Source: Escherichia phage RB49
Reading direction: 5' to 3' (one strand)
Length of the DNA stretch: 64,000 nt
Sequence record: NC_005066.1
Below are positions 16,314 to 36,332 of this stretch, in pieces. The notes under the pieces are model-generated. The model made no database searches and had not been told where the DNA came from. It worked only from the letters and a program-made list of their open reading frames with translations. Every line of letters starts with the position of its first letter. The first letter of the stretch is position 1. A program made the position numbers and the translations under genes.

Positions 16314-16336
16314 TTTAAACCTCCCATATAACAGAA

Positions 16337-16367
16337 AACGGGGCTAGTATAAAACTAGTCCCCGTTT
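16337..16367 (-). terminator. Rho-independent terminator between alt and the downstream ART gene
   Basis: Hairpin aaacggggctagt-ataaa-actagtccccgttt. Confidence 0.5.
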
Positions 16368-16390
16368 GAGTCAACCATTATTTCTTAAAA

Positions 16391-18442
16391 TTACATTTTA
16401 AATTTATCTGGCATTGCGTCTACAGATACCAGATCAGCGATAAGCTGACGTAGAGTTGCCTTATCTGCTTTCTTACGTTCGGTTTTAGCTTCGCTAATGA
16501 AGCTGGAGAAAGACAGGTCAGAAGCAGGTTTAACAACACCTTCACGGATGAATGCATCACCGTCCGCGATCATCTCGCCAGATTCTTGTAATGCTGCCAG
16601 TTCATTTTTGTTCATAATATGTGCCTCAATGTAATAAGTTTCTTGTGAATCCGTCGATGCCGTAGCACGAGTTACCGTATCAAAGGATAACACAACACCG
16701 CGAGGAAGTAAAATCTCGCATTCTTTGTAAGCAAATGCTTTGTTACCTACTGGCAAGACAGGGATGTTTTCCGCGCCAGCAATGGAGAAAGCAACATTGG
16801 CGCCACCTTCACCGCGAGAGCCAGCCATAGAATCAACACCAGCAACGGCACTAGCCACGTTTGCATTCCAGCCGCCAAAAATGTTAGGTGCAAGGGAAGT
16901 GCTCACATAGTTTTTAAAGTAAAACGCTTTTTGCTTACGTGCAGTTTCCCACATTTGCGACCGGAAGTCCATACCACGATACAGAATAGTACCCGGATCA
17001 AGTTTAACGCCATAGTTGGAGAAGGCATTATCCAGTGCATCGCACATCTTGACCAATTCTTCTGGATCTGATATGCCTTCAAACTCTTCCAGCTTGCGGT
17101 CGGTTAGGAAGTTGTTCATATTGATGTATGCTGCATCGGCATATTCGCTCAACACAAAACCTTCCGCGCCTGGCAGATCAAGATCAATATCTGCCATCAT
17201 TTCACCCATGTTGCTAGCAATTGCTTCAAACATACCGGAAGCAACATTACGTAGGGCATCGGTTTTAATCTGGGTGATATGACTACGCAGCATTTCAGCT
17301 TTTACATCTGCTGGCATAGACTGGTCTACTCGATCCATTGCCAGGGCGGTGATCTTGTTTTCGAATACTTCCTCGCTCATGATTTCTTTTAAGCGTTTGA
17401 CCGAGGCTGCGATAACTTCCGCAGACAACGGATCATATTGATCCTGAACTTTTACCAGTTCGCTTACTGCGTATTTTGCATCGGCTTCGCTTTCAAAAAT
17501 AGTACGCATGAAACCATAGCGAGTGATAATATCACTTGTCCAGTCATTCAGAGAACGGGCGGTTGAACGTTCTAAGGCTTGACGGTCAATCAGAGTATTA
17601 AACTGTTTCTTAGGTTCGGCTTCGGTGATATCTTCTTCCGGTTTAAGATTAATTTTTTCTGGATGATTCACATAGTCGCTGTTATAGGTCGCTTGAGTTT
17701 TCAGCATTTCTTCTTTAGTCAAACGAGATTTAGCCGCTACGCGTTGTTCTGCTTCCGCGTTTCGTTCTTCTTCTGACACAAGACTAGCCGCATACGCTTC
17801 ATCTTTAGTCAGAGATTCACCAGTAGCCTTAGATACCCAGCGATCACCTAAATCACTTTCTACTTTAGTGAACAAGGATTCATCAAGTTTAATCCCTTTA
17901 ATCTTATCAATCGCCATCCCGCGACGCTTGACAACAACTAAAGCGATCTTTTTGCTGGTCATTACTTCCTGCTGGAATACTTCAAACTTCGGTGTACGAC
18001 GCACCAAACGCTCTATAACGCGCTTAACCAGTTCGGTCTTACCTTTCATGCGGGATACGTTAAAACGGAACATAACAGCGTCTAATTGCGATTTACGGGC
18101 TGTTTCCATAACCACATCAAAAGCACTTGCCATGACTGCAATCGGGTTATCGCCTAGACCATTTTTAAGCTGTACAATACGACCGCTTTTGTTCATTTCG
18201 CACAGTACAACATGTGCGGTCTTGTCACCCATACGAATGATTTTAGGTGTTTTGTTGGTGAAGTTACAAAGACGGACAATCACATCTTTATCGCGTGTCT
18301 GTACTGCAAAAAGCTGTTTAGGATTCTGCTTAGGCTTTAAGCACTGTACCGGAGCAATACTGCCAAAGTTTTCTTCCTCTTCCGTCAACAGCCATTTCTC
18401 GAAAGATTCAATCATTAGATCGTCGATTTCTAAGTTAAACAT
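16391..18442 (-). CDS. alt: Alt ADP-ribosyltransferase (packaged, modifies host RNA polymerase)
   Basis: 683 aa (T4 Alt is about the same); C-terminal ART motifs LYRG, YVSTS, ECEILLPRG. Confidence 0.8.
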   Translation of the reverse strand: MFNLEIDDLMIESFEKWLLTEEEENFGSIAPVQCLKPKQNPKQLFAVQTRDKDVIVRLCNFTNKTPKIIRMGDKTAHVVLCEMNKSGRIVQLKNGLGDNPIAVMASAFDVVMETARKSQLDAVMFRFNVSRMKGKTELVKRVIERLVRRTPKFEVFQQEVMTSKKIALVVVKRRGMAIDKIKGIKLDESLFTKVESDLGDRWVSKATGESLTKDEAYAASLVSEEERNAEAEQRVAAKSRLTKEEMLKTQATYNSDYVNHPEKINLKPEEDITEAEPKKQFNTLIDRQALERSTARSLNDWTSDIITRYGFMRTIFESEADAKYAVSELVKVQDQYDPLSAEVIAASVKRLKEIMSEEVFENKITALAMDRVDQSMPADVKAEMLRSHITQIKTDALRNVASGMFEAIASNMGEMMADIDLDLPGAEGFVLSEYADAAYINMNNFLTDRKLEEFEGISDPEELVKMCDALDNAFSNYGVKLDPGTILYRGMDFRSQMWETARKQKAFYFKNYVSTSLAPNIFGGWNANVASAVAGVDSMAGSRGEGGANVAFSIAGAENIPVLPVGNKAFAYKECEILLPRGVVLSFDTVTRATASTDSQETYYIEAHIMNKNELAALQESGEMIADGDAFIREGVVKPASDLSFSSFISEAKTERKKADKATLRQLIADLVSVDAMPDKFKM

Positions 18443-18508: not shown

Positions 18509-18721
18509 TTATAATGCACCATCGAGCAATTGCTCTAAGGTGTATCCTGAATAGTCTTTTTCAATCAGGGTATATTTTCCTACTCGTTTAATCCAGCCAC
18601 GCATTTCAACGTATTCTGCGTAGTTGATGGTGCGAGTTGTTCCATCTTCTAGCAAAGCAGTACCGATTTCGTTAATGCGGTCATAAGTTACGTCGGTAAT
18701 GATGATTTCGATGTTAGCCAT
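18509..18721 (-). CDS. Hypothetical small early protein
   Basis: 70 aa ORF preceded by a promoter cassette and GGAG RBS. Confidence 0.55.
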   Translation of the reverse strand: MANIEIIITDVTYDRINEIGTALLEDGTTRTINYAEYVEMRGWIKRVGKYTLIEKDYSGYTLEQLLDGAL

Positions 18722-18786
18722 TTGATACTCCTTAGTAGTTCGTTTCGGTATGGGTGTATTATGATATACACCCTCTGTTATGTCAA
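18722..18786 (-). promoter_or_regulatory. Early promoter cassette (sigma70-like -35 TTGACA / -10 cATAAT plus conserved leader)
   Basis: Minus strand reads TTGACA-17 bp-CATAAT-ACACCCATACCGAAACGAA-GGAG-ATG; the same architecture recurs more than 20 times in the window. Confidence 0.6.
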
Positions 18787-18792
18787 CAACTT

Positions 18793-18972
18793 TTAGAACA
18801 TTTTTGAAATTAATTCTGCTTTGATTTCGCAGAGAACATCTAAAGATTTCTCGTCACCTGCTTTTGCGGCTTCTGTTTGCATTTTTGAAATGGCTTCAAT
18901 GTCAGTGCAATTATAAGCCGCTTGAACTTTAGCGATTGCGATGATTGCCGATTCGATGGTTAAGTGTTTCAT
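18793..18972 (-). CDS. Hypothetical small early protein
   Basis: 59 aa ORF (MKHLTIESAI...), hand-translated; promoter cassette and RBS upstream. Confidence 0.45.
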   Translation of the reverse strand: MKHLTIESAIIAIAKVQAAYNCTDIEAISKMQTEAAKAGDEKSLDVLCEIKAELISKMF

Positions 18973-19033
18973 GTTTGATTCTCCTTTCGTTTCGGTATGG
19001 GTGCATTATAGGGGATCGGTGACCCCCTGTCAA
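18973..19033 (-). promoter_or_regulatory. Early promoter cassette with palindromic spacer
   Basis: TTGACA, spacer containing GGGGTCACCGATCCCC, TATAAT-like box, conserved leader. Confidence 0.6.
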
Positions 19034-19040
19034 CAACTTT

Positions 19041-19595
19041 TTAGTTATTTTTTAATTGTTCATCTTGCAATAATGCAATCACATGCTGGCGATGTTCTTC
19101 CGATTGAGACACACCGAAAAAGTTTGTTTTGTAGAAATACTCTAATCGGTCTTCTCGTGTGCTCTCTTCCATCATGATCGCGGGTAGTCCGAGATTTCGG
19201 AAACGTCGCTTTTCTGCTGGCGTAAAATCACTGTAATACAACATAGAATCATCATTACAAGCAATGCTAAACTCATCCTTCATAAAGGAGAATATTGCGT
19301 TTAAACGCTGTTTACCGTCCACGATTTCGATCTCATAGCGAGAGCCATCATCAATCTTAGCCATTGCGATAGCACCAACCGGAAAATCATTAATCAGGTT
19401 TTCGATAAACATACGTTTGTTTTCGGTGTCCCATACTAAAGGACGCTGATAATCTGGGTTCATGTTGATATAGCCATCTTCTAACCATGCTTCATAAACA
19501 GAGATAACAAAGTTTTTAGTATTGGTATAGTAACGGCGTTTAGGCGTTAAACGGTTCATGTTATAGTCTCCTGAATGGATCATCACGTAAATCAA
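19041..19595 (-). CDS. DUF262 / ParB-like nuclease-NTPase domain protein
   Basis: 184 aa; DYQRPLVWD and VDGKQRL motifs match the DUF262 signatures (IPxFQRxYxW, DGQQR) known from GmrSD-type proteins. Confidence 0.6.
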   Translation of the reverse strand: MIYVMIHSGDYNMNRLTPKRRYYTNTKNFVISVYEAWLEDGYINMNPDYQRPLVWDTENKRMFIENLINDFPVGAIAMAKIDDGSRYEIEIVDGKQRLNAIFSFMKDEFSIACNDDSMLYYSDFTPAEKRRFRNLGLPAIMMEESTREDRLEYFYKTNFFGVSQSEEHRQHVIALLQDEQLKNN

Positions 19596-19890
19596 TATCT
19601 TTTAAGAACTCATCCCATGAATGGCGGATATTGTTCTTAATTCTCCAGATAAGAGCAGGGATTGAACGCTCTCCCATCTGGAAGTATGGATCATATGATC
19701 CGTATGCCCAATATGCTACTACAATTCCACAATCAGCGCAATAGTATTCTATTTCACTTGCTGGCGACCAAAGTCCATCAATATGATCGGTGATCTTGCT
19801 TTCGATGTTATGGCTATGACAATCAGGGCAACGGATGCAATGACCTTGTTTATCGTAATTTGACGTTAGCGAATACTTAAACAATCTCAT
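19561..19890 (-). CDS. Zinc-ribbon protein
   Basis: 109 aa; CIRCPDCHSH ... YCADCG cysteine pairs; overlaps both neighbours (operon). Confidence 0.5.
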   Translation of the reverse strand: MRLFKYSLTSNYDKQGHCIRCPDCHSHNIESKITDHIDGLWSPASEIEYYCADCGIVVAYWAYGSYDPYFQMGERSIPALIWRIKNNIRHSWDEFLKDIDLRDDPFRRL

Positions 19891-20606
19891 TATAGATCCT
19901 TATTTGCTTCAAATACTGCCTTTGCGAATCCTCGCGGGGTAAGTGACCTGATAGTCTTTGTTTTCGTTCCTTTCCCGCCTAGCTTAGAATGCTGTTTACT
20001 GTACCCTTTATTAATCTGCAAAGGTTTCTTTTCTGGCATTATAAAGCCTTGTCCGGTCCATAAGCAAGTCTTTTTCGGGTACATATCACGGGCGGCAATA
20101 TACTCAGGAAAAGTAGGATGTTTATCATCTTCCGGCAAATAACCGCCATATTCCCACGGATGGAACATATAATCAGGCTTACGCCACATGCTAGAGATAA
20201 CGCTTACAGGATTCTCTATCATGTAGGGAACTCCTATCCATTCACCCAAATAAGCGGTTATTTTAGCTGCCCTTACATCATGAACTTGAATCAATGGTCC
20301 TTGTTCTAGTTTCTTTCGTTCAAAGTGCGCAGCGCCACTAACAGCTAAATTGGTGCACGGTGGGAATGCAAAGATAATATCCGGTTTCCCCCATTCAAGG
20401 TCCATTGCTCTTTCCAGCCAGTTCAAATCAATCCAGGTGTTTACATAGGTAATGTTTGGATGTTCAAATCTGGTATTATATTTTTTGTATGTACCGTGGT
20501 CGCCATCGTCAGCATTAAAGCAGATCACCTTATGACCCGCTTTAGCCCATTCTAACCCCATTATCCCCGACCCGTCAAAGTTGCAGAATATTAATTTTTG
20601 TTTCAT
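19890..20606 (-). CDS. Compact C5-cytosine methyltransferase-like protein
   Basis: 238 aa; motif I-like FDGSGIMG, motif IV-like FPPCTNLAVSGA (Pro-Cys catalytic dipeptide), motif VI-like MIENPV at canonical spacings; only about 100 aa remain where a target-recognition domain would sit. Confidence 0.45.
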   Translation of the reverse strand: MKQKLIFCNFDGSGIMGLEWAKAGHKVICFNADDGDHGTYKKYNTRFEHPNITYVNTWIDLNWLERAMDLEWGKPDIIFAFPPCTNLAVSGAAHFERKKLEQGPLIQVHDVRAAKITAYLGEWIGVPYMIENPVSVISSMWRKPDYMFHPWEYGGYLPEDDKHPTFPEYIAARDMYPKKTCLWTGQGFIMPEKKPLQINKGYSKQHSKLGGKGTKTKTIRSLTPRGFAKAVFEANKDL

Positions 20607-20848
20607 ATACGCCCCTTTAATCCAACACAGATTTTAGAAGGTTCTTTGCCGTGCCACATTAAGTAAAGTCCGTTAATGCGGCCTTGTTTTGTATATGATT
20701 CTTTTCTGATCTTCTTATAGTGTCGTGTTTCCTCTACCGATTGTTTAGAATACCAATCATAAAGGAAGAGGAACAAAGGCCAACCATTAGCAACCTTAAT
20801 GCAGTTATTCAAAAATTCCTTATTTCGTTTAATTAATTTTCTTTTCAC
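20603..20848 (-). CDS. Hypothetical protein
   Basis: 81 aa ORF, overlaps neighbours by 4 nt on each side. Confidence 0.45.
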   Translation of the reverse strand: MKRKLIKRNKEFLNNCIKVANGWPLFLFLYDWYSKQSVEETRHYKKIRKESYTKQGRINGLYLMWHGKEPSKICVGLKGRI

Positions 20849-21096
20849 GCTGCCCCCATTGGTTTGATAGTAACAGAATCTAAAAGACCTTTGTTAGCCA
20901 GTTCGCGGCAAGTTTTCAGATCCGCAACTTCCCAGCCAGCCGCAATCAGGTTATCAATGAGGCTGTTAGCAACTTCTTCGCTCATGAAAGAGCACTGTTT
21001 GCCGATGGTGTAGCGTACACGCTGTAATTTCAGTTTACGGAAGCCTTTAACGTTCAGGTCTTTAGCGATTTTCTTTGCGGTTTCGATGTTAGCCAT
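20845..21096 (-). CDS. Hypothetical protein, first gene of the operon
   Basis: 83 aa ORF with promoter cassette and GGAGAATC RBS upstream. Confidence 0.5.
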   Translation of the reverse strand: MANIETAKKIAKDLNVKGFRKLKLQRVRYTIGKQCSFMSEEVANSLIDNLIAAGWEVADLKTCRELANKGLLDSVTIKPMGAA

Positions 21097-21165
21097 TGTT
21101 TGATTCTCCTAAGTGGTATCTCGTCTTGATGGTTGTATTGTAGGGGAGTTATCCTCCCCTGTCAA
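21097..21165 (-). promoter_or_regulatory. Early promoter cassette with palindromic spacer
   Basis: TTGACA then GGGGAGGATAACTCCCC palindrome; heads the 21096 down to 19041 operon. Confidence 0.55.
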
Positions 21166-21179
21166 CACTTTTTATAAAA

Positions 21180-21347
21180 TTATTTGTTAATTTCTGGTGC
21201 GTTGCTAGGATAGTAACCTTCTTTAACTCCGAGGTATTTCGCAACCATCCCTACAATCTTCTGTGCTACTACAATGTCAAATTTCAGATAATCTTCGCCG
21301 TGGGTTTCAACGATATATGCTTCACATGCTGCTTTAGTCTCGAACAT
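21180..21347 (-). CDS. Hypothetical small protein, duplicate of 25506..25673
   Basis: 55 aa (MFETKAACEAYIVETHGEDYLKFDIVVAQKIVGMVAKYLGVKEGYYPSNAPEINK), near-identical in DNA and protein to the ORF at 25506..25673. Confidence 0.55.
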   Translation of the reverse strand: MFETKAACEAYIVETHGEDYLKFDIVVAQKIVGMVAKYLGVKEGYYPSNAPEINK

Positions 21348-21350
21348 TTT

Positions 21351-21409
21351 GATTCTCCTATTTCGTTTCGGTATGTGTGTATTATAGGGGATCTCCCGAT
21401 CCCCGTCAA
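21351..21409 (-). promoter_or_regulatory. Early promoter cassette with palindromic spacer
   Basis: TTGACg-GGGATCGGGAGATCCCC-TATAAT-conserved leader. Confidence 0.6.
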
Positions 21410-21422
21410 CAACTTTTTTAGA

Positions 21423-21899
21423 TTATTTGCACCACACTGTAATTTTCTTATCATGTTGGTAGTGAATCCATCGAATATCATCTTTATCAATCATGACAGT
21501 AACATACCCATTTACTAGTGATTTGTCAAAACGGTTATGTAACAGTGCAATATATTGAAAGAATGGTTCTTTTGTATTTGAATATATTCCCTTACCATCA
21601 AACGTCATGACATTTTTGTGAACTTTAAATTCATTACGAAGAACAGCCGTCATTGTCCCGTCTTCATTAGTTTTGAGTTTTAATTCGGATTCTTTGTAAA
21701 AATATGCGTCACGGGCTTTACTTTCTTCCCCGTCTTGTACTCTTACTTCACTAGCATAATCACACTGATAGGTCTTATCTACATTTTCGATCTTTTCTTG
21801 TGTCATATCAAAAAGCGGTGCGACCTTTTTCTTGGCCGCGTGTGCTACGTTGGTCATGGACAGTGCTGCAACAACCGCAATAGCAATAATCTTCTTCAT
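21423..21899 (-). CDS. Secreted/periplasmic hypothetical protein
   Basis: 158 aa; N-terminal signal peptide MKKIIAIAVVAALSMTNVAHA. Confidence 0.55.
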   Translation of the reverse strand: MKKIIAIAVVAALSMTNVAHAAKKKVAPLFDMTQEKIENVDKTYQCDYASEVRVQDGEESKARDAYFYKESELKLKTNEDGTMTAVLRNEFKVHKNVMTFDGKGIYSNTKEPFFQYIALLHNRFDKSLVNGYVTVMIDKDDIRWIHYQHDKKITVWCK

Positions 21900-21962
21900 A
21901 GTATTCTCCTTTTGTTTTGTGTTGGGAGTATCTTAGCGACACTCCCGTTATTTTTCAAATCT
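21900..21962 (-). promoter_or_regulatory. Early promoter cassette, GGGAGT/ACTCCC-palindrome class
   Basis: TTGAAA-17 bp-TAAGAT with inverted repeat GGGAGTgtcgcTAAGATACTCCC spanning the -10. Confidence 0.45.
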
Positions 21963-21964
21963 TT

Positions 21965-22246
21965 TTATTCGTGATTAGTTTCGATGTTGTGCATTTTGCA
22001 CCAGTTCAACCAATCGCCCAGATCTTGATAGTTGATGCTTTTATCTGCTGCCATCGTTTTTGTCTTGATACCCATATGTGCGTTATGAGTAAGCATTTTT
22101 ACAGTGAACTCAATTTTATCACCTTTAGCTTTAACATCAACCAGTTTGGTCCACTGGCTACCAGCGCCGCGAATGTTCATACCAACGATGTTTCCGATGT
22201 ATGCTTCTTTGTTTTTCAGGATTTCGGTTGCTTTGATGAATTTCAT
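21965..22246 (-). CDS. Hypothetical protein
   Basis: 93 aa ORF with promoter cassette and RBS. Confidence 0.5.
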   Translation of the reverse strand: MKFIKATEILKNKEAYIGNIVGMNIRGAGSQWTKLVDVKAKGDKIEFTVKMLTHNAHMGIKTKTMAADKSINYQDLGDWLNWCKMHNIETNHE

Positions 22247-22308
22247 TTTTGATTCTCCAGTTCGTTTCGGTATGGGTGTATTATGCTATGTTCTTACTTT
22301 GGTGTCAA
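22247..22308 (-). promoter_or_regulatory. Early promoter cassette
   Basis: TTGACA ... CATAAT ... conserved ACACCCATACCGAAACGAA leader. Confidence 0.6.
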
Positions 22309-22315
22309 CAACTTT

Positions 22316-22585
22316 TTAGATATTTTCAGAAATAAATTTTAAAACTTGACGTAAATGTTTCTCATCTTTGATAGTCGCCGGAAGTTCTTCTTTTACTTCC
22401 TGTGCAAGATAGATATTTCCGTTCCAAGTGAAAGATCCGTCTTCGTTTACGCGATAGCTGAACATCCACTCGCAATCATTTTCGATTTCATATACACACA
22501 GAAGGGTGTAATCGTTAAAGCTAGTGATTTCAAGGTCGAAGCCGTGACGTTTTGCAAAGTTGGTAGTGGTTTTAGTCAGTGCCAT
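22316..22585 (-). CDS. Hypothetical protein
   Basis: 89 aa ORF with promoter cassette and RBS. Confidence 0.5.
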   Translation of the reverse strand: MALTKTTTNFAKRHGFDLEITSFNDYTLLCVYEIENDCEWMFSYRVNEDGSFTWNGNIYLAQEVKEELPATIKDEKHLRQVLKFISENI

Positions 22586-22654
22586 TGTTTGATTCTCCTA
22601 AGTGGTATCTCGTCTTGATGGGTGTATTATGCTATAGTCGTGATCTGGTGTCAA
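22586..22654 (-). promoter_or_regulatory. Early promoter cassette
   Basis: TTGACA ... CATAAT ... conserved leader; preceded on the minus strand by a terminator hairpin. Confidence 0.6.
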
Positions 22655-22684
22655 CAACTTTTTTAAATTTTTGGAAATAAAAAA

Positions 22685-22702
22685 GCCGACACTAAGGTCG
22701 GC
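22685..22702 (-). terminator. Stem-loop terminator (stem-loop half of the cassette)
   Basis: gccgac-actaag-gtcggc followed by a T-run on the minus strand; the same hairpin recurs at 23189..23206. Confidence 0.55.
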
Positions 22703-22707
22703 ACATT

Positions 22708-23019
22708 TTAAAAATTCTTGCTATATATGCAAGCCTCATAATCTAGAGGATGACCGCCAATCCTACCAGGCTTAATATTCCAACCGCATCGATATTTTCT
22801 GACCATGCTAACCGTTTCGGTTCTTAGAGCATTTCTTTGCAAATCATACCCCCTAAATTCTTGTCTATAAGGACAGTCCGCTTTGCAAGTTGGCGGTTCT
22901 ACGTCATTTAGCGGGTCGGAAGCAGTTGGCTTTATTATCAATTCTTTGTTTGCAATAATCATAAGCACATCCCATTGAAGACAATTTAACATCTTCGCAA
23001 TAAGTGTTGAATCCGTCAA
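22708..23019 (-). CDS. Hypothetical protein (start uncertain; overlaps 22904..23095 in another frame)
   Basis: 103 aa ORF; the upstream half overlaps the better-supported 22904..23095 gene, so the true start may be internal or non-ATG. Confidence 0.3.
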   Translation of the reverse strand: MTDSTLIAKMLNCLQWDVLMIIANKELIIKPTASDPLNDVEPPTCKADCPYRQEFRGYDLQRNALRTETVSMVRKYRCGWNIKPGRIGGHPLDYEACIYSKNF

Positions 23020-23095
23020 ATACGATCACTTCGTATTTGACTCCATCAGCGATAGCTTTTACTTTATACCATCCATGCTTGTATAAAATCTTCAT
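22904..23095 (-). CDS. Hypothetical small protein
   Basis: 63 aa with GAGGAAA RBS and promoter cassette upstream. Confidence 0.5.
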   Translation of the reverse strand: MKILYKHGWYKVKAIADGVKYEVIVFDGFNTYCEDVKLSSMGCAYDYCKQRIDNKANCFRPAK

Positions 23096-23157
23096 CTTTA
23101 TTTCCTCAATCTCGTTTCGATGGGTGTATTATGCTATAGGCTAGACCAGGTTGTCAA
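23096..23157 (-). promoter_or_regulatory. Early promoter cassette
   Basis: TTGACA-17/18 bp-CATAAT-ACACCCATCGAAACGA. Confidence 0.6.
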
Positions 23158-23188
23158 CAACTTTTTTAATTTTTTGGGAAATAAAAAA

Positions 23189-23206
23189 GCCGACGCTAAG
23201 GTCGGC
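23189..23206 (-). terminator. Stem-loop terminator
   Basis: gccgac-gctaag-gtcggc with T-run on the minus strand, after the 23215..23523 gene. Confidence 0.55.
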
Positions 23207-23214
23207 TAATAAAA

Positions 23215-23523
23215 TCATTTGGACAAATAATCATTCTGTGCAATCCGGTCGGCGTATGCTGGTGTTATGTCAATCGCCAGCACTTTAACGCGTGCTTTCT
23301 TGCGACCTGGGTTTTCTCGTAACCAGTGCTCATGACCGTGAACATTTTTATACTTTGATGCTTCTTCAAATGTACGGATCGGACCTGGGTAATCAGCGTA
23401 AAGGATCTCTAGGTCTTCGGTGATGTAAAAATATACATCGTAATTACTGTTCTCTAGTTTAAGCAGAGAGTTGCGAAATTGTGGTAAATTCTCGCGGGTA
23501 AATTCAACTACAAGATTTTTCAT
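23215..23523 (-). CDS. HxHW-family small protein, paralogue A
   Basis: 102 aa; shares YxYITEDL...HGHEHW...VKVLAIDI pattern with five other ORFs in this region. Confidence 0.55.
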   Translation of the reverse strand: MKNLVVEFTRENLPQFRNSLLKLENSNYDVYFYITEDLEILYADYPGPIRTFEEASKYKNVHGHEHWLRENPGRKKARVKVLAIDITPAYADRIAQNDYLSK

Positions 23524-23548
23524 AGTGATATCCTCATTCAGATAGATT

Positions 23549-23569
23549 AAAAGGGGCTTAACGCCCCCC
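23549..23569 (-). terminator. Rho-independent terminator
   Basis: Hairpin ggggc-ttaa-cgcccc with flanking T-run on the minus strand. Confidence 0.5.
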
Positions 23570-23574
23570 GTATA

Positions 23575-23862
23575 TTAAAACAGTCCTTCCTGTACACCGT
23601 AGTAGAGTTCGTCACTGATAATTTCATTAATGCGACGGTGTGCATATTCCTGATTTGCGAAGTTATCAGCAAGTTCTACTTTAGTTTCGCCGTCATGAGT
23701 CCATTTAGTGATAACTTTACCATCTGCAAATTTGAAGTTGAACTCTTTAGCTACTGCATCGCGTACCAGACGTGCGAACTTGTTGTTACGGATGGCATTA
23801 TCGGTTTCGTGTGCAGCGTGAGCGAATTTGTTAACTTTCAGAGTGATAGTAATGTATGCCAT
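23575..23862 (-). CDS. Hypothetical protein, paralogue of 26891..27220
   Basis: 95 aa; VRDAVAKEFNFKF resembles VRKALAKEFNTKI in the 26891..27220 product. Confidence 0.5.
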   Translation of the reverse strand: MAYITITLKVNKFAHAAHETDNAIRNNKFARLVRDAVAKEFNFKFADGKVITKWTHDGETKVELADNFANQEYAHRRINEIISDELYYGVQEGLF

Positions 23863-23937
23863 AATTTGATTCTCCTAGTTAGAAAGTGTATCTCGTTTCG
23901 ATGGGGATATTATGCTATATCCCCGATCCGGTGTCAA
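23863..23937 (-). promoter_or_regulatory. Early promoter cassette
   Basis: TTGACA ... GGGGATAT-AGCATAAT ... conserved leader. Confidence 0.55.
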
Positions 23938-23943
23938 CACTTT

Positions 23944-24237
23944 TTATAAAATAATTTTTTGATATTTTTCTATGATGTTTGTGTAGGTCACGTCAACCGC
24001 TAGCACCGTTGCTTCGAATCCACCGTTTAGCCAATGGCTATGATCATGATCGTGAAAGAAACCTAGACCAGTACGAAGACCTTCTTTATATTCTGCGCGT
24101 ACATTCAGTTTGTCGTCGATAAACAGATAAAACCATGAATTTTTACTAGGATTGATGATACAACCTTTCAGATTAGGAAGAATATCACGACTAAGAATAA
24201 ACTTATCACCTACTTTGAACATAATATTAGTCCTCAC
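23944..24237 (-). CDS. HxHW-family small protein, paralogue B
   Basis: 97 aa; FYLFIDDKL ... HDHSHW ... TVLAVDV. Confidence 0.55.
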   Translation of the reverse strand: MRTNIMFKVGDKFILSRDILPNLKGCIINPSKNSWFYLFIDDKLNVRAEYKEGLRTGLGFFHDHDHSHWLNGGFEATVLAVDVTYTNIIEKYQKIIL

Positions 24238-24628
24238 TTATAAGGTCAAACCAATTGTTTTTCGCATAATGCTTAATGCGTGCTTGATCTGCTTCCGCTG
24301 GTGATAGATTCCATGCAACCACTACAACTTCTGACGCATCGTCATCCGTTTCTGATACCCAATGATTGTGATTCATACAGTTATTTGCTATCGAGTGAGC
24401 AAATGATTTCATCACTGGAGACGTATAATCATAGTAACGGATTTTCAGATTTTCATCAACGTACAAGTAGATCGTATACGGCTTATATTCAGTAACCAGT
24501 AACAGACAGTTACGCAATTCTGGGAAAATCTTTTTAGTTAATTTCATTTTATAATCCTCGGTCTCGGCTATAGTACACGGTACGCCATACAATTTCATGT
24601 TTCGTGTCGCTCCAGCACACGATCTCAT
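24227..24628 (-). CDS. HxHW-family small protein, paralogue C (start probably internal Met)
   Basis: 133 aa ORF; LYVDENLKIRYYDY ... HNHW ... VVVVAW. Confidence 0.5.
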   Translation of the reverse strand: MRSCAGATRNMKLYGVPCTIAETEDYKMKLTKKIFPELRNCLLLVTEYKPYTIYLYVDENLKIRYYDYTSPVMKSFAHSIANNCMNHNHWVSETDDDASEVVVVAWNLSPAEADQARIKHYAKNNWFDLISED

Positions 24629-24788
24629 TTACTCTTAAATCTTTGTTATCAACAAAAGATGAACATTGTGACGCTTCTTTCATCATTTTATCTGCTGTTT
24701 TCTCATCAAATACAGCACAGATTTCTTTATACACTCGATAATCTTTGAATTGACTCTGAATACCCATAATTAACACCATTCCAACCAA
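24549..24788 (-). CDS. Hypothetical protein, paralogue of 24727..24990
   Basis: 79 aa ORF; SQFKDYRVYKEICAVFDEKTADKMMKEASQCSSF parallels the neighbouring gene. Confidence 0.45.
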   Translation of the reverse strand: MVGMVLIMGIQSQFKDYRVYKEICAVFDEKTADKMMKEASQCSSFVDNKDLRVNEIVCWSDTKHEIVWRTVYYSRDRGL

Positions 24789-24990
24789 TTGTTTTTGAGA
24801 AAACGTTTATCCACTGTTGAGTGTAGCATGTTTCTTTCCATGATACAATACGAGTGGAATAATGGTTTTTGTTTCCAGAAAAGGACGGGCATTTTGATGC
24901 ATCTTCCATCATCTTTTCGGCGAACTCTGGTGCGTATACTCGCAGGATCTGTTGATATGCTTTGTATTCTTTAAATTTGCTCATAATCAT
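24727..24990 (-). CDS. Hypothetical protein, paralogue of 24549..24788
   Basis: 87 aa ORF; SKFKEYKAYQQILRVYAPEFAEKMMEDASKCPSF. Confidence 0.45.
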   Translation of the reverse strand: MIMSKFKEYKAYQQILRVYAPEFAEKMMEDASKCPSFSGNKNHYSTRIVSWKETCYTQQWINVFSKTIGWNGVNYGYSESIQRLSSV

Positions 24991-25249
24991 TCACTACCTT
25001 ATCAGCTTCTTTTGTTGTTTTTACATCAACTGCGATAACTCGTAAAGGTTCGTCATGGTTCCACCAGTGGTCATGAATATCAGCTTGTGATTTATCACCA
25101 AAGGAATCACGAATATCATTTTTACATTTATAGCTAATGTGACCTTCATAGTCAACATAAAGGTAATTATCGAAAATCGGCGTTTTTAAGATCATACCGA
25201 AAAATCTTTCTTTGTGTGTCTTATCCAGCGTTGCAGTAATTCGCATCAT
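24971..25249 (-). CDS. HxHW-family small protein, paralogue D
   Basis: 92 aa; YLYVDYEGH ... HDHWW ... RVIAVDV. Confidence 0.55.
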   Translation of the reverse strand: MMRITATLDKTHKERFFGMILKTPIFDNYLYVDYEGHISYKCKNDIRDSFGDKSQADIHDHWWNHDEPLRVIAVDVKTTKEADKVVNDYEQI

Positions 25250-25261
25250 AATATATTCCTC

Positions 25262-25441
25262 TTAGAAAGGGATGGTCATTTCTTGAGCTTGTACATTCTC
25301 GTTAGGATTAAACTTCATCCAGCCGATATTGTCTACCAGCATATGCACATTTTTATCATATCCTACGTGAGTAGTCAACACTAAATGTGCTTTACCTTCA
25401 ATGATGAGTTCCATGTACTTCTGAACTTCGATAGCTTTCAT
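25262..25441 (-). CDS. Hypothetical small protein, first gene of a six-gene operon
   Basis: 59 aa ORF (MKAIEVQKYM...), hand-translated; promoter cassette and GGAGAATC RBS upstream. Confidence 0.4.
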   Translation of the reverse strand: MKAIEVQKYMELIIEGKAHLVLTTHVGYDKNVHMLVDNIGWMKFNPNENVQAQEMTIPF

Positions 25442-25443
25442 TT

Positions 25444-25502
25444 TGATTCTCCGTTTGTTGTCTTGATGGGAGTATCTTACTACTCCATTTAATCATTGTC
25501 AA
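25444..25502 (-). promoter_or_regulatory. Early promoter cassette, GGGAGTA/TACTCCC-palindrome class
   Basis: TTGACA-17 bp-TAAGAT with inverted repeat GGAGTAGTAAGATACTCCC. Confidence 0.5.
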
Positions 25503-25505
25503 CTA

Positions 25506-25673
25506 TTATTTGTTAATTTCTGGTGCGTTGCTCGGATAGTAACCTTCTTTAACACCTAGATATTTTGCAACCATTCCGGTGATCTTCTGTGCTACTACGA
25601 TATCGAATTTCAGGTAGTCTTCACCGTGGTTTGCTACAATGTATGCTTCGCATTCTGCTTTAGTCTGGAACAT
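25506..25673 (-). CDS. Hypothetical small protein, duplicate of 21180..21347
   Basis: 55 aa from the internal Met of the listed 25506..25709 ORF (the 5' extension covers the promoter). Confidence 0.55.
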   Translation of the reverse strand: MFQTKAECEAYIVANHGEDYLKFDIVVAQKITGMVAKYLGVKEGYYPSNAPEINK

Positions 25674-25736
25674 TTTTGATTCTCCTATATCTCGTTGGTA
25701 TGTGTGCATTATAGGGGATCACCGATCCCCTGTCAA
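25674..25736 (-). promoter_or_regulatory. Early promoter cassette with palindromic spacer
   Basis: TTGACA-GGGGATCGGTGATCCCC-TATAAT-conserved leader. Confidence 0.6.
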
Positions 25737-25741
25737 CAACT

Positions 25742-26092
25742 TTATAATGCTTTATATGCGTATTTCATAAATTTGTCTGCCACTTCATTGGCATGTTCAG
25801 ATTCTACGCCTGATTCGAGAACAATAGCTAGGTCGGTTTCGTCATTCCCGCCGTACCAATGATTTGATGTTCGATTTTTTTCAATTGGAAATTGGTCACT
25901 TTTATCTGTGCGACAAAATACATCTAAATGCTCGTCGATGTAAAAGATCCAATCTTCATAAAGAATAACGGTATTAGCAAGATTTTTATTGCCTTCAACG
26001 AAAGGTTCCGCGACAAATAGCTTAGTTTGTTCCATAGTAATTTCCTCAAAATTATACAGTTTCGTAAACTTCCCAATGTTCAGCGCCAACAC
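25742..26092 (-). CDS. HxHW-family small protein, paralogue E (likely starts at internal Met near 26035)
   Basis: 116 aa ORF; FYIDEHLDVF ... SNHWYGG ... LAIVLESG. Confidence 0.5.
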   Translation of the reverse strand: MLALNIGKFTKLYNFEEITMEQTKLFVAEPFVEGNKNLANTVILYEDWIFYIDEHLDVFCRTDKSDQFPIEKNRTSNHWYGGNDETDLAIVLESGVESEHANEVADKFMKYAYKAL

Positions 26093-26243
26093 GCTTAACG
26101 AAAAGGTTTTCTTTGATGTTATTCATAAACGTCTGGATGGATTTAATGCGGTTTGAAGGTTTCCATTCTTCGTTGGCATTGCGTCGATACATCATAACAT
26201 TACCAGTTCGCTTATATTCAGCAACCATTTTAAGACCACACAT
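26052..26243 (-). CDS. Hypothetical small protein
   Basis: 63 aa ORF; possible promoter (TTGACA at 26316..26321) upstream. Confidence 0.4.
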   Translation of the reverse strand: MCGLKMVAEYKRTGNVMMYRRNANEEWKPSNRIKSIQTFMNNIKENLFVKRVGAEHWEVYETV

Positions 26244-26300
26244 AATATTATCCTCAATTTGTGGGAGAGTATTACCCCTCCCAATGATTGTTATGTTATA

Positions 26301-26621
26301 TCACACAAAATGGCGTGTCAATGCTTCTTTTGCGGTTCCGCTAAGACTTTCAATCTCGCCTGGCATAACATCAACCGCCAGAACTTCTACAACATCCTCG
26401 GACCCTAACCAGTGAGTATGGCCTTTGTAGAACTTGATAACCAGACCACCTTCCTCGTCCCATTTAACGCTATCGCTAGCCCACCACACATCACCGTCGA
26501 TAAAGTTGATGTAAAGCACACTACGCCACATTGAATTAATTACTTTCAATACTGCGCCTTTCATCTCTTCCACGGTATGGTCTTCCATTTTGAAGACCTC
26601 ACCTACCTGAACTTTTGCCAT
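26301..26621 (-). CDS. HxHW-family small protein, paralogue F
   Basis: 106 aa; YINFIDGDVW ... GHTHW ... VEVLAVDV. Confidence 0.55.
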   Translation of the reverse strand: MAKVQVGEVFKMEDHTVEEMKGAVLKVINSMWRSVLYINFIDGDVWWASDSVKWDEEGGLVIKFYKGHTHWLGSEDVVEVLAVDVMPGEIESLSGTAKEALTRHFV

Positions 26622-26638
26622 TTAGTCACCTCTCTTTA

Positions 26639-26818
26639 TTACATAACAATCACGCCAGCCGTTGAAAGTTGATGTTTCAACTGAGCATTTTCTGCTACCG
26701 TCAAATCAATGATTTCTTGTGACGCTGCAATCATATAGCCATTGGTGATATTGTTTTGCATCAGTTCAATGGTTTCTTCGTTGTAGCGGATTTTAGCGAT
26801 GATTTCGTTGAAGTTCAT
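26639..26818 (-). CDS. Hypothetical small protein
   Basis: 59 aa from the internal Met (MNFNEIIAKI...) of the listed ORF; the 5' extension overlaps the promoter cassette. Confidence 0.5.
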   Translation of the reverse strand: MNFNEIIAKIRYNEETIELMQNNITNGYMIAASQEIIDLTVAENAQLKHQLSTAGVIVM

Positions 26819-26881
26819 AATTGATTCTCCTAGTTCGTTTCGGTATGTGTGTAGTATAGGGGATCGGTGATCCCCTGTCAA
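26819..26881 (-). promoter_or_regulatory. Early promoter cassette with palindromic spacer
   Basis: TTGACA-GGGGATCACCGATCCCC-TATACT-ACACACATACCGAAACGAA. Confidence 0.6.
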
Positions 26882-26890
26882 CAACTTTTT

Positions 26891-27220
26891 TTAAAGTTTT
26901 TCCATGATAACGGTCATAATTACATCTTCTGCGCGAGCTGTCAGATTATCAGCGTCAGCATGTGGGCGGTTGGTTGTTACAGAGATAACACCGTTGCGCA
27001 CTGGTTTGATATTGATATCAAGATGATCCGCGAAACGTTCGTGATCCGCGAAACGTTCGCCAGTTACAGAATGAATTTTGGTGTTAAATTCTTTTGCCAG
27101 TGCCTTGCGAACTTCACGAATCAGGATAGCGTTTTTCAGTTGGTTCTCCGCGCTCATGGTCTTCTGGGTGTTCATGGTTCCGTCGAAGTCAATCATTGGC
27201 AGCGTTACGATGTATTTCAT
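26891..27220 (-). CDS. Hypothetical protein, paralogue of 23575..23862, containing an in-frame 18-bp tandem duplication
   Basis: 109 aa; ERFADH-ERFADH encoded by a tandem 18-mer at 27025..27060. Confidence 0.5.
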   Translation of the reverse strand: MKYIVTLPMIDFDGTMNTQKTMSAENQLKNAILIREVRKALAKEFNTKIHSVTGERFADHERFADHLDINIKPVRNGVISVTTNRPHADADNLTARAEDVIMTVIMEKL

Positions 27221-27294
27221 TTTTGATTCTCCGTTTAAGAAAGTGTGTTTCGTTTTGATGTGTGTAGTATAGGGGATACGTGATCCCCTGTCAA
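27221..27294 (-). promoter_or_regulatory. Early promoter cassette
   Basis: TTGACA-GGGGATCACGTATCCCC-TATACT-leader. Confidence 0.55.
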
Positions 27295-27307
27295 CAACTT
27301 TTTTGAA

Positions 27308-27652
27308 TTATTTTTTCATGAGCTTAATGGCTTCTTCCATAGCCAGCACATTTCGATAGTTAGGGTATCGTGTTAGATCGTCATACATTCGCTTAAGGGT
27401 GGAAACTTCCTCAAACTCTGGGTTTTCTAGATACAGTTGAACAAATTGTTTCTCTACCATCTCTGCTTTTAGCTTGTCTGCTTGTTCCTGTTCATATGAT
27501 TTAGTTGGACCCAACACCAACAAAATGATAAAGGTGATCAACGGGCTAATGATCAACGATAGGAGAACATAACCGATAACGCTACGGTTTAAACGGCTTG
27601 CGTACATGCCTACTAGGAAAACAAAAAGGATATAGATAAACAGAAAGAACAT
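27308..27652 (-). CDS. Small membrane protein
   Basis: 114 aa; two hydrophobic helices at the N-terminus. Confidence 0.5.
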   Translation of the reverse strand: MFFLFIYILFVFLVGMYASRLNRSVIGYVLLSLIISPLITFIILLVLGPTKSYEQEQADKLKAEMVEKQFVQLYLENPEFEEVSTLKRMYDDLTRYPNYRNVLAMEEAIKLMKK

Positions 27653-27659: not shown

Positions 27660-28133
27660 TTACTCCTTATTTTCTCGCTCGTACTTTTCGAAATAAAATT
27701 CTACTGGCTGGTCATGAATTGACAGCAAGCCAAAGCGTTTAGCCGCTCGCAATCCCATATTGCGCTGAATGTACTTCTGGAAGTTCTCGCGTATACACTT
27801 ACGCCAGTATTCTAAGCCCATACAGCTTTTATAAAGATTGCATTGCACACACGCCGGATTCATGTTATCAAGTATATCATGTTCCGGTTTATGCATTCCT
27901 ACAACCTTATACTTCCACGATCCATCATCATTACGGGCAATTCGTCCATTTTCATCATAGACTACCTTTGAGCGTCGCAATACTGGTTTGATGTGGTCTG
28001 CGTGCCAGCGATCCCCTAGTTCCTCGCCACAATAGGCACAACGTCCACCATATTTCATTTTCAGGATCTGGCGTTGCTCTTTCTTTGACAATTTTTTAGG
28101 TTTAGGGGCTTTCGCCCCTTCATTATCACACAT
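27660..28133 (-). CDS. HNH endonuclease (free-standing, homing-endonuclease-like)
   Basis: 157 aa; CAYCGEEL ... HADHIKP ... CVQCN HNH zinc-finger motif; start overlaps the DNA ligase stop. Confidence 0.7.
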   Translation of the reverse strand: MCDNEGAKAPKPKKLSKKEQRQILKMKYGGRCAYCGEELGDRWHADHIKPVLRRSKVVYDENGRIARNDDGSWKYKVVGMHKPEHDILDNMNPACVQCNLYKSCMGLEYWRKCIRENFQKYIQRNMGLRAAKRFGLLSIHDQPVEFYFEKYERENKE

Positions 28134-29628
28134 CGAATACCTCTTTTACTGTATTTGCAGTGGTCTTGTCGTAGCGAATACGTTTGATGATTGGGAGAAA
28201 TAAAGAGAACTCCGGTTCATCTTCTTTACGTGATTTGCTGCGGATATACCCGTTGCATGTCATCTCAATGACTTTTCCAATCAGGTTATGACGGTCAGTC
28301 CATAACATTTCTCGGTCGAGTTCATTTCGACGATCGAACGGAATTACACGTTCAGTACCATCATCACCTTTTTCGGTTGTAGTGTCGGTTAATCCCGATC
28401 CGGTGTTAGTCATCATTCGTCCGCACGCACTACGGACAGTAAAACCGCCTACCTTATTGGGGTCTTTACTATGCGGATATACATCAACAATTTCCGCGTC
28501 GAAGTCAATCACTTCTTTAAATTTAACCTGATCTTTACTACGGCGATCTTCAAATACACCATGTAAATTTTTAAGGATAATACCTTCTAAGCCCATGTTT
28601 ACATAGCGATGATATACTTCGCGAGCTTCATCTATATTGTTAACTACAGTGTTTTCGATTATCTGAACACGAGGATCGTTAAGTTCTTCAACAATCTGTT
28701 TTAGTTCTTCGAATCGATCTTTATATTGCTTCGTTGCTTTCTCATTTCCGTAATACACATCACGGTCGATAACATCCCAGACAGTATAAACAATACATTG
28801 GGCTTCTTCTTTTGGAATAGTTCCTTTAAGTGATTTGTTGAGGATACCATTTCCAGTCTGACGGTCTGCAACAACGGATTCTTTCACTGCTTCCGCTACT
28901 GGCGTTAATGGCATTTCCTCTTCTTCAAATATCCATGACAGAGTACCATCATAAACGCTCTCAACGAAGTTCTGCGCTGGTGTTTGCGAAAGGGTAGGCA
29001 TATATACCAATTCGCCATCTAGAACAATTCCACGGCCTCGTAGACGCTCTAAAACCGCAAACAAATCATCAAGCCCTTGATAGGTATTACCTGAGCGGGT
29101 ATAGATTGCTAATGTTTCCCCGTCAATATCAGCCATACCACGAGCGCCATCGCTTTTAAGTTGTGCATACGCCGGATATTTGATATTGGCAATGGTCTTA
29201 TCAGAACATGACGATGCAAGGTGGCACGGCTGCTGGGGGATCAGTTTCTTCCATACCTTGTTTGCAGTGGTAGCGGAACAACCGCATTCCAGGTCACGAT
29301 TCAGGACCATCATTGCAACTTTAGCATCATCTTCTGACAAGCAAGTCAGAGTATCGGTAACTAGCTGTAATGCTGCATTACCAGTTACTTGACGTGTTGC
29401 AAGTTTATTTTTAAAGACCTGCAATGCACCGGATAAAGACAATACAGACGAATAGCGAGACGGTTTATCGTATTTCTTTACGCCAAACGTAACCTGTTTG
29501 CAATATGCCAGATAAAAGCATTCTTTCAGCGTTTCATTGCTCGCGGATTCTTTCAGAATCTTTTCTTTCAGCGATGTTTTGTCTGTTGCTGCAAGCTGAT
29601 TAATGATATTAAGAATTGACATTTTCAC
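28126..29628 (-). CDS. 30: ATP-dependent DNA ligase
   Basis: 500 aa; adenylation motif LKSDGAR (KxDGxR) and ligase motifs; T4 gp30 is a similar size. Confidence 0.8.
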   Translation of the reverse strand: MKMSILNIINQLAATDKTSLKEKILKESASNETLKECFYLAYCKQVTFGVKKYDKPSRYSSVLSLSGALQVFKNKLATRQVTGNAALQLVTDTLTCLSEDDAKVAMMVLNRDLECGCSATTANKVWKKLIPQQPCHLASSCSDKTIANIKYPAYAQLKSDGARGMADIDGETLAIYTRSGNTYQGLDDLFAVLERLRGRGIVLDGELVYMPTLSQTPAQNFVESVYDGTLSWIFEEEEMPLTPVAEAVKESVVADRQTGNGILNKSLKGTIPKEEAQCIVYTVWDVIDRDVYYGNEKATKQYKDRFEELKQIVEELNDPRVQIIENTVVNNIDEAREVYHRYVNMGLEGIILKNLHGVFEDRRSKDQVKFKEVIDFDAEIVDVYPHSKDPNKVGGFTVRSACGRMMTNTGSGLTDTTTEKGDDGTERVIPFDRRNELDREMLWTDRHNLIGKVIEMTCNGYIRSKSRKEDEPEFSLFLPIIKRIRYDKTTANTVKEVFDV

Positions 29629-35438: not shown

Positions 35439-35500
35439 CTTGATACTCCTTAGTTGTTTTGGTATGGGAGTATCTTACTACTCCCGTGATATGCTGTCAA
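35439..35500 (-). promoter_or_regulatory. Early promoter cassette, GGGAGTA/TACTCCC class
   Basis: TTGACA-17 bp-TAAGAT with GGGAGTAGTAAGATACTCCC inverted repeat. Confidence 0.5.
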
Positions 35501-35508
35501 CTGCTTTT

Positions 35509-35658: not shown

Positions 35659-35662
35659 TTGA

Positions 35663-36006: not shown

Positions 36007-36013
36007 CTACTTT

Positions 36014-36285: not shown

Positions 36286-36300
36286 CACCCAATAACAAAA

Positions 36301-36322: not shown

Positions 36323-36332
36323 TGAACAAACA

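Follow-up and report, generated by a model that had tools for sequence, protein, structure and literature searches.

The 64,000-nucleotide stretch of Escherichia phage RB49 DNA analysed here (NC_005066.1, hereafter the window) contains 24 copies and two variants of a repeated early-promoter cassette, all on the minus strand and each followed by an open reading frame (ORF). We conclude, with a probability of about 0.88, that these elements are the promoter-early stem-loops (PeSLs) of RB49/Phi1-type phages; they have already been published, so the finding is real and not new. The identification follows from direct orthology: the elements occupy the same locus, the sequences are collinear, and for one of them, cassette 27294, there is a base-for-base alignment with the PeSL that lies upstream of ORF210 in RB49, Phi1 and JSE. 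The original prediction, made from the letters of the window, had noted a resemblance to PeSLs, and this proves to be identity, the cassettes being direct orthologues in the locus where PeSLs were defined. To the published picture we add that hairpins in the promoter core and canonical terminators exclude one another, that the core hairpins end before the transcription start, and that the ribosome-binding site (RBS) carries an 11-mer resembling RegB targets. We did not find these three points in the parts consulted of the two PeSL papers (PMC2839356, PMC4122927).

Identity and anatomy of the cassettes

Across 91-96% of its length, the region 18700-27300 is 94-97% identical to genomes of Krischvirus (among them MIZ6, TB34, SAP, W115 and RB49), the genus to which RB49-like T4-type coliphages belong; for the window, identity to Krischvirus genomes is 95-97%. 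The comparison genomes were GenBank Krischvirus records; a search of IMG/VR with the Alt protein gave two loci only. From alt to gene 30, which encodes DNA ligase, the region is collinear with Phi1 and RB49 at 97-98% identity, and its cassette-rich part at 18.7-27.3 kb is the hyperplastic region between those genes, occupied by small hypothetical ORFs (Phi1 ORF185-ORF212). In the GEC-3S record, the corresponding intergenic sites carry annotated promoters (-35 and -10 signals) and terminators.

A search for TTGACA-N17-TANAAT with at most one mismatch returned 29 matches, every one on the minus strand, against 3.5 predicted from shuffled sequences. Selection for the family signature and for an ORF downstream left 24 cassettes and the two variants (26321 and 16374) (Table 1). 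Thirteen of the 24, together with variant 26321, lie inside 18722-27294; the others are found at 35.4-36.3, 38.5, 43.4, 44.9 and 62.7-63.8 kb, and the clusters are those at 18.7-27.3, 35.4-36.3 and 62.7-63.8 kb. The more than 20 minus-strand cassettes that had been predicted were thus recovered at the same places and far above chance.

Each element is about 70-110 bp long and comprises, in order, an A-tract, TTGACA, a spacer of 16-18 bp, a TATAAT-like box, ACNCNC-CAT, an A/C-rich leader, GGAG(AATCAAA) and ATG. The spacer measures 17 bp in 21/24 cassettes, 16 bp in two and 18 bp in one. Column statistics across the cassettes revealed a conserved A-tract, AAAAAGTTG, abutting the -35 box, and AC-N-C-N-C-A-T after the -10 box; the consensus immediately 5' of TTGACA is aaaaa.tttaAAAAAGttG, and the stop codons of upstream genes fall within this AT-rich stretch. 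The GGAG expected before the ATG was present in 20/24 cassettes, and either GGAG or GAGG lies 4-10 nt ahead of the ATG in all 24. In every cassette (24/24) that ATG opens an ORF of at least 49 amino acids (aa), the downstream ORFs being mostly 49-160 aa long and hypothetical by annotation in relatives.

PeSLs were defined in RB49 and Phi1 as a sigma-70-consensus promoter with an AT-rich upstream region and a stable, often polyG...polyC, stem-loop, the 3' end of the element being a Shine-Dalgarno sequence and start codon; there are about 50 per genome, mostly in hyperplastic regions and upstream of ORFans (Arbiol 2010, Genome Biol Evol 2:140; PMC2839356). A later summary gives TTGACA-N17-TATAAT plus a Gn-loop-Cn stem (Comeau 2014, PMC4122927). 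The elements assayed came from within the alt-gene 30 region, PeSL193/192 and PeSL206/205 as promoters and the PeSL211/210 stem-loop as a terminator (PMC2839356). A single wild-type PeSL206/205 clone gave about 13,000 Miller units and most clones had gained -35 or -10 mutations (PMC2839356), which indicates very strong promoters. The PeSL211/210 stem-loop, orthologous to that of cassette 27294, lowered lacZ expression downstream of it to about the same extent as rrnB T1 (PMC2839356). Published work on PeSLs decides in favour of transcription initiating downstream of these elements. The reported RB49 early-promoter consensus, in which positions -3 to -1 are C, accords with 5'-end mapping. Promoter, AT-rich upstream region, Gn-loop-Cn stem, terminal Shine-Dalgarno sequence and ATG, siting at ORFans in hyperplastic DNA and association with indels are all shared between the window cassettes and RB49/Phi1 PeSLs, with no essential difference between them.

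Hairpins in and around the promoter core

Hairpins occupy the spacer in eight cassettes, overlie the -10 box in nine and stand upstream in canonical form in five; two cassettes have none, and in one variant the hairpin lies in the leader. The PeSL stem-loop has been described at five positions, most commonly between -35 and -10 or overlapping -10 (PMC2839356). The spacer palindromes of the original prediction are present, but its exact form, GGGGATC-N3/4-GATCCCC, holds for four of the eight; of the other four, two are near variants, one is GGGGAG-N5-CTCCCC and one GCGGGGA-N4-TCCCCGC. A second class spanning the -10 box had also been foreseen and stands with its nine cassettes, but the loop is 6 nt instead of N5 and the class also takes in GGGGATAT/ATATCCCC and GGGTGTAT/ATACACCC. 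Terminator hairpins, expected ahead of several cassettes, were found at five (63755, 44913, 36285, 23157 and 22654), all with a T-run; the five counts of T in the next 8 nt were 7, 7, 7, 7 and 6.

The mean folding energy of the promoter cores is -8.8 kcal/mol, whereas shuffles average -3.0 and the window's 26 sigma-70-like matches outside the family -2.2. A core hairpin alone was found in 17 of the 24 cassettes, an upstream canonical terminator alone in 5, both in none and neither in 2 (Fisher p = 5e-4), a mutual exclusion expected if both do one job. With +1 taken as the A of CCC-CAT, all core hairpins stop at or before -1. The cassette's own mRNA therefore does not contain them, and they occur solely in RNA that reads through from upstream, which argues against a translational or processing role of the palindromes on the downstream gene.

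We compared 28 distinct core stems from 13 sources, counting a mismatch only where at least two Watson-Crick pairs lay on either side. Twenty-three were perfect, five had one internal G.U pair on the sense strand, and none had an A.C or other mismatch. Compensatory double changes between cassettes convert GGGAGTA/TACTCCC to GGGGGTA/TACCCCC and GGGGATAT/ATATCCCC to GGGTGTAT/ATACACCC. What is conserved in the stems is pairing on the transcribed-sense strand, not a fixed sequence. Scanning IMG/VR for AAGTTGTTGACA-N17-TATAAT, a pattern anchored in the flank, was meant to yield an unbiased sample of further spacers but proved too unspecific: the 120 matches were mostly unrelated sigma-70-like sequences, and one small Krischvirus fragment was usable.

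Cassettes, indels and ORFan slots

Comparison by blastn, locus by locus, with Phi1, RB49, TB34 and GEC-3S identified four indels (18763-18985, 21428-21964, 22703-23108 and 27316-27672), with 7/8 junctions inside cassettes. This phage is distinctive solely in the set of ORFan slots that are occupied. Between the homologues of ORF193 and ORF191 lies the slot of RB49 ORFan192 (PMC2839356), which is empty in Phi1, TB34, GEC-3S and OZ035808, and holds a 103-aa ORF in JSE and a 158-aa ORF in the window and MIZ6. Recombination between adjacent PeSLs has been reported to release ORFan mini-circles, detected by inverse PCR for ORF192 and ORF210 (PMC2839356). Two 55-aa ORFs of the window, 21180..21347 and 25506..25673 (minus strand), share 91% amino-acid identity, and a spacer-class cassette precedes each.

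The cassettes might on this evidence be ordinary early promoters with no further regulatory design under selection, their likeness a mere by-product of duplication and gene conversion in a recombination-prone phage. Paralogous ORFs behind near-identical cassettes and indel junctions within cassettes are what such an account predicts, and for T4-type recombination less than 50 bp of homology suffices (cited in PMC2839356). We nevertheless regard it as unlikely, as it leaves unexplained the one-hairpin rule, the compensatory stem changes, the placing of hairpins strictly upstream of +1, and the measured promoter and terminator activities.

Several observations concern the slots and paralogues themselves. 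The 158-aa ORF (21423..21899, minus strand; cassette 21900-21970) has a predicted N-terminal signal peptide, MKKIIAIAVVAALSMTNVAHA. Its MIZ6 counterpart shares only 58% protein identity with it, where the flanks share about 96% DNA identity; the 103-aa JSE protein is basic, predicted to be secreted and unrelated to it. In OZ035808.1, named 'Krischvirus RB49', the slot is empty as in Phi1, unlike the 2010 placement of ORFan192, and the segment 18763-18985 is missing; either the strain differs or the cassettes were lost. A 114-aa, apparently membrane-spanning ORF (27308..27652, minus strand) is shared by the window and JSE and missing from Phi1, TB34, GEC-3S and OZ035808. Beside it and abutting the ligase gene lies an HNH endonuclease ORF (27660..28133, minus strand; Pfam HNH, E = 5e-6). 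Tandem paralogues at 24549..24767 and 24727..24990 are 40% identical, and five proteins of roughly 92-106 aa (ORFs 23215, 23944, 24227, 24971 and 26301) make up a loose family with 27-34% identity.

The leader and a RegB-like ribosome-binding site

The conserved leader that had been predicted recurs far above chance, but as the full 19-mer ACACCCATACCGAAACGAA (at most one mismatch) it is confined to five cassettes (0.01 expected). The other leaders are length and sequence variants, and the start is CATACC in 9 cassettes, CATC(G/A)A(A/G)AC in 14 and CAAC in one. Conservation reaching beyond the promoter, with the 19-mer in five copies and looser variants elsewhere, could point to an RNA element devoted to regulation, for instance a translational operator, a riboswitch or a small-RNA target. 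That is very doubtful. In the 19-mer, the opening six bases (ACACCC) constitute the untranscribed discriminator; CAT, a typical start-site context, comes next. The transcribed part is 51% A and 23% C and folds less than its shuffles (mean minimum free energy from +1 to ATG+15, -1.0 kcal/mol; z = +0.6); in 8/24 cassettes the energy is 0.0, which leaves the RBS 11-mer region single-stranded by prediction. The covariance models of Rfam 15 gave no match at gathering score in the whole window. From about +14 to the RBS, both length and sequence vary, the distance from the -10 box to the ATG ranging from 24 to 46 nt. Leader conservation is better explained by promoter escape or start-site preference, a structure-free RBS, a RegB/S1 site, and the common ancestry of a module that recombines.

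Among the transcribed blocks, the RBS 11-mer GGAGAATCAAA is the best conserved; it has 13 copies, on the minus strand only and all at cassette RBSs. In T4, the endoribonuclease RegB, stimulated by S1, cuts early mRNAs at single-stranded GGAGRAYARAA, the optimum being GGAGAAUAAAA (PMC1702504; PMC3014915). The cassette 11-mer matches the consensus at 10/11 positions, with C at position 8, and the optimum likewise at 10/11; one RBS copy, GGAGGATAAAA, fits the consensus at 11/11. Outside the cassette RBSs there was no match of this type elsewhere in the window or on the plus strand. Like the T4 sites (Durand 2006, PMC1702504; PMC3014915), the cassette 11-mers hold the Shine-Dalgarno position of early genes and are predicted to be single-stranded; they differ at position 8 and are candidate sites by sequence.

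The RB49 regB site has been reported as cleaved (review, PMC3014915). The regB gene lies beyond the 64-kb window, and Phi1 phi1p094 matches Pfam REGB_T4 (E = 1e-48), so RegB is shown for the lineage. We put at about even odds the proposal that PeSL-driven mRNAs are RegB substrates, in which case early shut-off would travel with the cassette. A RegB target in the leader would plausibly represent the known T4 mechanism, not a new layer of control. In Phi1 (EF437941.1), the RBS of regB itself (7256..7678, minus strand), GGATAATAAAA, matches the A-rich RegB/S1 consensus perfectly, position 4 being U, and as such it fits the autoregulation described for T4-type phages.

Alternative readings of the palindromes

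It had been suggested that the palindromes form an extra regulatory layer, possibly an operator. They are no extra layer, being the stem-loop part of the PeSL definition, with the spacer and -10 positions both published, and the operator is disfavoured, since stem position and sequence vary while pairing is kept and the stems are exclusive with canonical terminators. As an operator, the spacer palindrome would be a double-stranded DNA site through which a repressor or activator, of phage or host origin, governs the firing of early promoters, as in early shut-off. Such a role would suit a perfect dyad within the promoter core, since a protein bound there would obstruct RNA polymerase, and the recurrence of the GGGG...CCCC core; Arbiol 2010 speculated on a DNA-binding protein recognising GGGG...CCCC, though for recombination (PMC2839356). 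However, the dyad moves among the spacer, the -10 box, the upstream flank and the leader, and at these four positions has at least six unrelated arms (GGGGATC, GGGGAG, GCGGGGA, GGGAGTA, GGGGATAT and GGGTGTAT). Compensatory and G.U changes, with no A.C, keep the pairing, and the orthologous stem-loop alone behaved as a terminator/attenuator in a reporter (PMC2839356). The dyad is also missing wherever a canonical terminator stands upstream (p = 5e-4), which points to functional equivalence with a terminator and not to an operator. Operator function is accordingly one we consider highly improbable.

It also seems a long shot that the strand-asymmetric G-run/C-run hairpins are, beyond read-through terminators, folded single-stranded DNA sites, akin to integron attC, for a phage protein that would catalyse PeSL-to-PeSL excision and insertion of ORFan mini-circles; in a weaker form, they could bind a factor timing early-promoter shut-off. 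A hairpin in RNA and one in the same DNA strand would agree equally well with the 5-to-0 bias of G.U over A.C, and conservation of the GGGG...CCCC core exceeds what pairing alone demands. Sensitivity of the promoters to Dam methylation or SeqA through the paired GATC of GGGGATC-N3/4-GATCCCC was rejected as next to impossible: there are 13 GATC sites within the 24 promoter cores, and annotations in relatives place a DNA methyltransferase in this hyperplastic region, but GATC is confined to the GGGGATC sub-family (6/17 core hairpins, related by descent), its frequency in the window is ordinary (347 observed, 333 expected under a Markov model), and the putative methyltransferase ORF has no Pfam match and is a cytosine-5 methylase, not Dam, in one relative's annotation.

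Proposed mechanism

Each cassette is a near-consensus sigma-70 early promoter with an UP-element-like A-tract (UP, upstream A/T-rich promoter enhancer), its promoter activity being shown in the literature and transcription most likely starting at the A of the conserved CCC-CAT. Each carries one G-run/C-run hairpin, in the spacer, over the -10 box, or upstream as a canonical terminator. The core hairpins would be transcribed only by polymerase reading through from the gene above, and would terminate or attenuate that transcript, insulating each ORFan unit. Our analyses agree that the hairpins act on read-through transcripts rather than as an operator; the terminator effect is published for the orthologue of cassette 27294, and we infer that it extends to all hairpin classes. 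If the core hairpins do terminate transcription, they do so non-canonically or with a factor. The short, unstructured A/C-rich 5' leader and the strong RBS GGAGAATCAAA would give efficient early translation, and RegB with ribosomal protein S1 would probably cut GGAGAATCAAA, switching off early mRNAs. The repeated cassettes also serve as homology patches at which phage recombination inserts, deletes and swaps ORFans, as shown by the indel junctions seen here and the mini-circles in the literature.

Several points weigh against parts of this model. The core hairpins are not canonical intrinsic terminators: a standard terminator scan called 0/17 of them, and the 8 nt that follow the stem contain 0-3 U. 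Cassettes 22308 and 43410 lack any hairpin. The excess of G.U over A.C, 5 to 0, is a small sample, and as all five G.U pairs are A-to-G changes beside the G-run, mutational bias is possible. The published assay concerned one stem-loop and recorded a drop in downstream lacZ, which may reflect RNA processing or stability. As for RegB, position 8 of GGAGAATCAAA is C where A is strongly preferred, and conservation of the 11-mer could come from shared descent or gene conversion among cassettes.

Comparison with other systems

The PeSLs and PmSLs of T4/PST and KVP40/nt-1 (PMC4122927) and the elements of the T-even internal-protein locus resemble the window cassettes as promoter-plus-hairpin linkers that are shuffled in modular fashion. 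They differ in consensus (TTTACW... or TTGYVH...) and in their AT-richer stems (A3-4G3-loop-C3T3-4 or AGNA-loop-TCNT), and are analogues, not homologues. Integron gene cassettes and lambdoid 'morons', a comparison made by the PeSL authors (PMC2839356), are likewise small, self-expressed single-gene units with preferred insertion sites, whose promoter and terminator travel along. Unlike integron cassettes, PeSLs have no integrase or attC/attI sites, and their exchange appears to proceed by general homologous recombination between repeated regulatory sequences. Rho-independent terminators share with the cassettes GC-rich hairpins that end upstream transcription, and five cassettes have true ones with a T-run, whereas the 17 core hairpins have no U-tract.

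Other genes near the cassettes

Three minus-strand ORFs, 19041..19595, 19561..19890 and 19890..20606, form an operon without internal cassettes and encode a GmrSD_N (DUF262) domain protein (E = 6e-20), a small zinc-ribbon protein and a 238-aa product. The last (19890..20606) is annotated in relatives as a DNA or cytosine-5 methyltransferase and gave no match in a Pfam search. Downstream of a canonical-terminator cassette, the 485-aa ORF 43399..44856 (minus strand) has CapR-homology, DUF723 and treble-clef zinc-finger (DUF4379) domains; downstream of cassette 62746, the 252-aa ORF 61925..62683 (minus strand) has an LprI (lysozyme inhibitor) domain (E = 1e-5). A second ADP-ribosyltransferase ORF (15489..16313, minus strand; ADPrib_exo_Tox, E = 4e-16) lies immediately downstream of alt, its expression predicted to be driven by the variant cassette at 16314-16386.

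Table 1. PeSL cassettes, variants and flanking marker genes in the window.
Feature	Coordinates	Strand	Description
Variant cassette 16374, TTGACT/TATACT	16314..16386	-	GGGG...CCCC hairpin, 16-nt loop, then GTTTTCTGTT; downstream of alt; predicted to drive ADP-ribosyltransferase ORF
alt	16391..18442		683-aa ORF
PeSL cassette	18722..18798	-	GGGTGTAT-N6-ATACACCC hairpin over -10; full 19-mer leader; drives ORF 18509..18721
PeSL cassette	18973..19045	-	Spacer hairpin GGGGGTC-acc-GATCCCC, one G.U pair; perfect TTGACA/TATAAT
PeSL cassette	21097..21177	-	Spacer hairpin GGGGAG-gataa-CTCCCC
PeSL cassette	21348..21421	-	Spacer hairpin GGGGATC-ggga-GATCCCC; lower junction of window-specific insertion 21428-21964
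Weaker PeSL, TTGAAA/TAAGAT	21900..21970	-	GGGAGTGTC-N5-GATACTCCC hairpin over -10; drives inserted 158-aa ORF (predicted secreted)
PeSL cassette without hairpin	22247..22320	-	Full 19-mer leader
PeSL cassette	22586..22702	-	Canonical terminator GCCGAC-N6-GTCGGC + T-run upstream; core hairpin absent
PeSL cassette, 18-bp spacer	23096..23207	-	Canonical terminator AGCCGAC-N6-GTCGGCT + T-run upstream
PeSL cassette	23863..23949	-	GGGGATAT-N6-ATATCCCC hairpin over -10
PeSL cassette	25442..25514	-	GGAGTA-gtaaga-TACTCC hairpin over -10
PeSL cassette	25674..25748	-	Spacer hairpin GGGGATC-ggt-GATCCCC; perfect consensus promoter; drives paralogue of ORF 21180..21347
Variant cassette 26321, TTGACA/TAACAT	26244..26333	-	Hairpin GGGAGGG-N6-CTCTCCC downstream, in leader
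PeSL cassette	26819..26893	-	Spacer hairpin GGGGATC-acc-GATCCCC
PeSL cassette 27294	27221..27306	-	Upstream of ORF210 homologue; spacer hairpin GGGGAT-cacgt-ATCCCC, same in RB49
DNA ligase (gene 30)	28126..29628		500-aa ORF
PeSL cassette	35439..35512	-	GGGAGTA-gtaaga-TACTCCC hairpin over -10
PeSL cassette	35659..35737	-	GGGGGTA-gtaata-TACCCCC hairpin (compensatory variant)
PeSL cassette	35945..36018	-	GGGGGTA-gtaaga-TACTCCC hairpin (G.U intermediate)
PeSL cassette	36233..36323	-	Canonical terminator AAAGTCGCC-N6-GGCGACTTT + T-run upstream
PeSL cassette	38490..38561	-	Spacer hairpin GCGGGGA-gaaa-TCCCCGC
PeSL-like cassette without hairpin, 16-bp spacer	43352..43422	-	
PeSL-like cassette, 16-bp spacer	44857..44965	-	Canonical terminator AGCCTCCC-ttcg-GGGAGGCT + T-run upstream; RBS GGAGGATAAAA
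PeSL cassette	62684..62758	-	GGGAGTA-gtaaga-TACTCCC hairpin over -10
PeSL cassette	62910..62981	-	Spacer hairpin GGGGATC-ggc-GATCCCC
PeSL cassette	63193..63265	-	GGGAGTA-gtatta-TACTCCC hairpin over -10
PeSL cassette	63696..63795	-	Canonical terminator AAGCCGATC-N5-GGTCGGCTT + T-run upstream

Implications

PeSL biology for this phage group and locus was published in 2010 and 2014, and the cassettes are no new kind of element. The analysis sharpens two questions: by what means a hairpin that has no U-tract halts transcription, and whether the mobile cassette comes with RegB shut-off built in. Within about 80 bp, a PeSL unites a promoter and a transcription insulator with a translation start and a linker for recombination. 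Such packing allows T4-type phages to acquire, shed and exchange small accessory genes while the genes on either side are left undisturbed.

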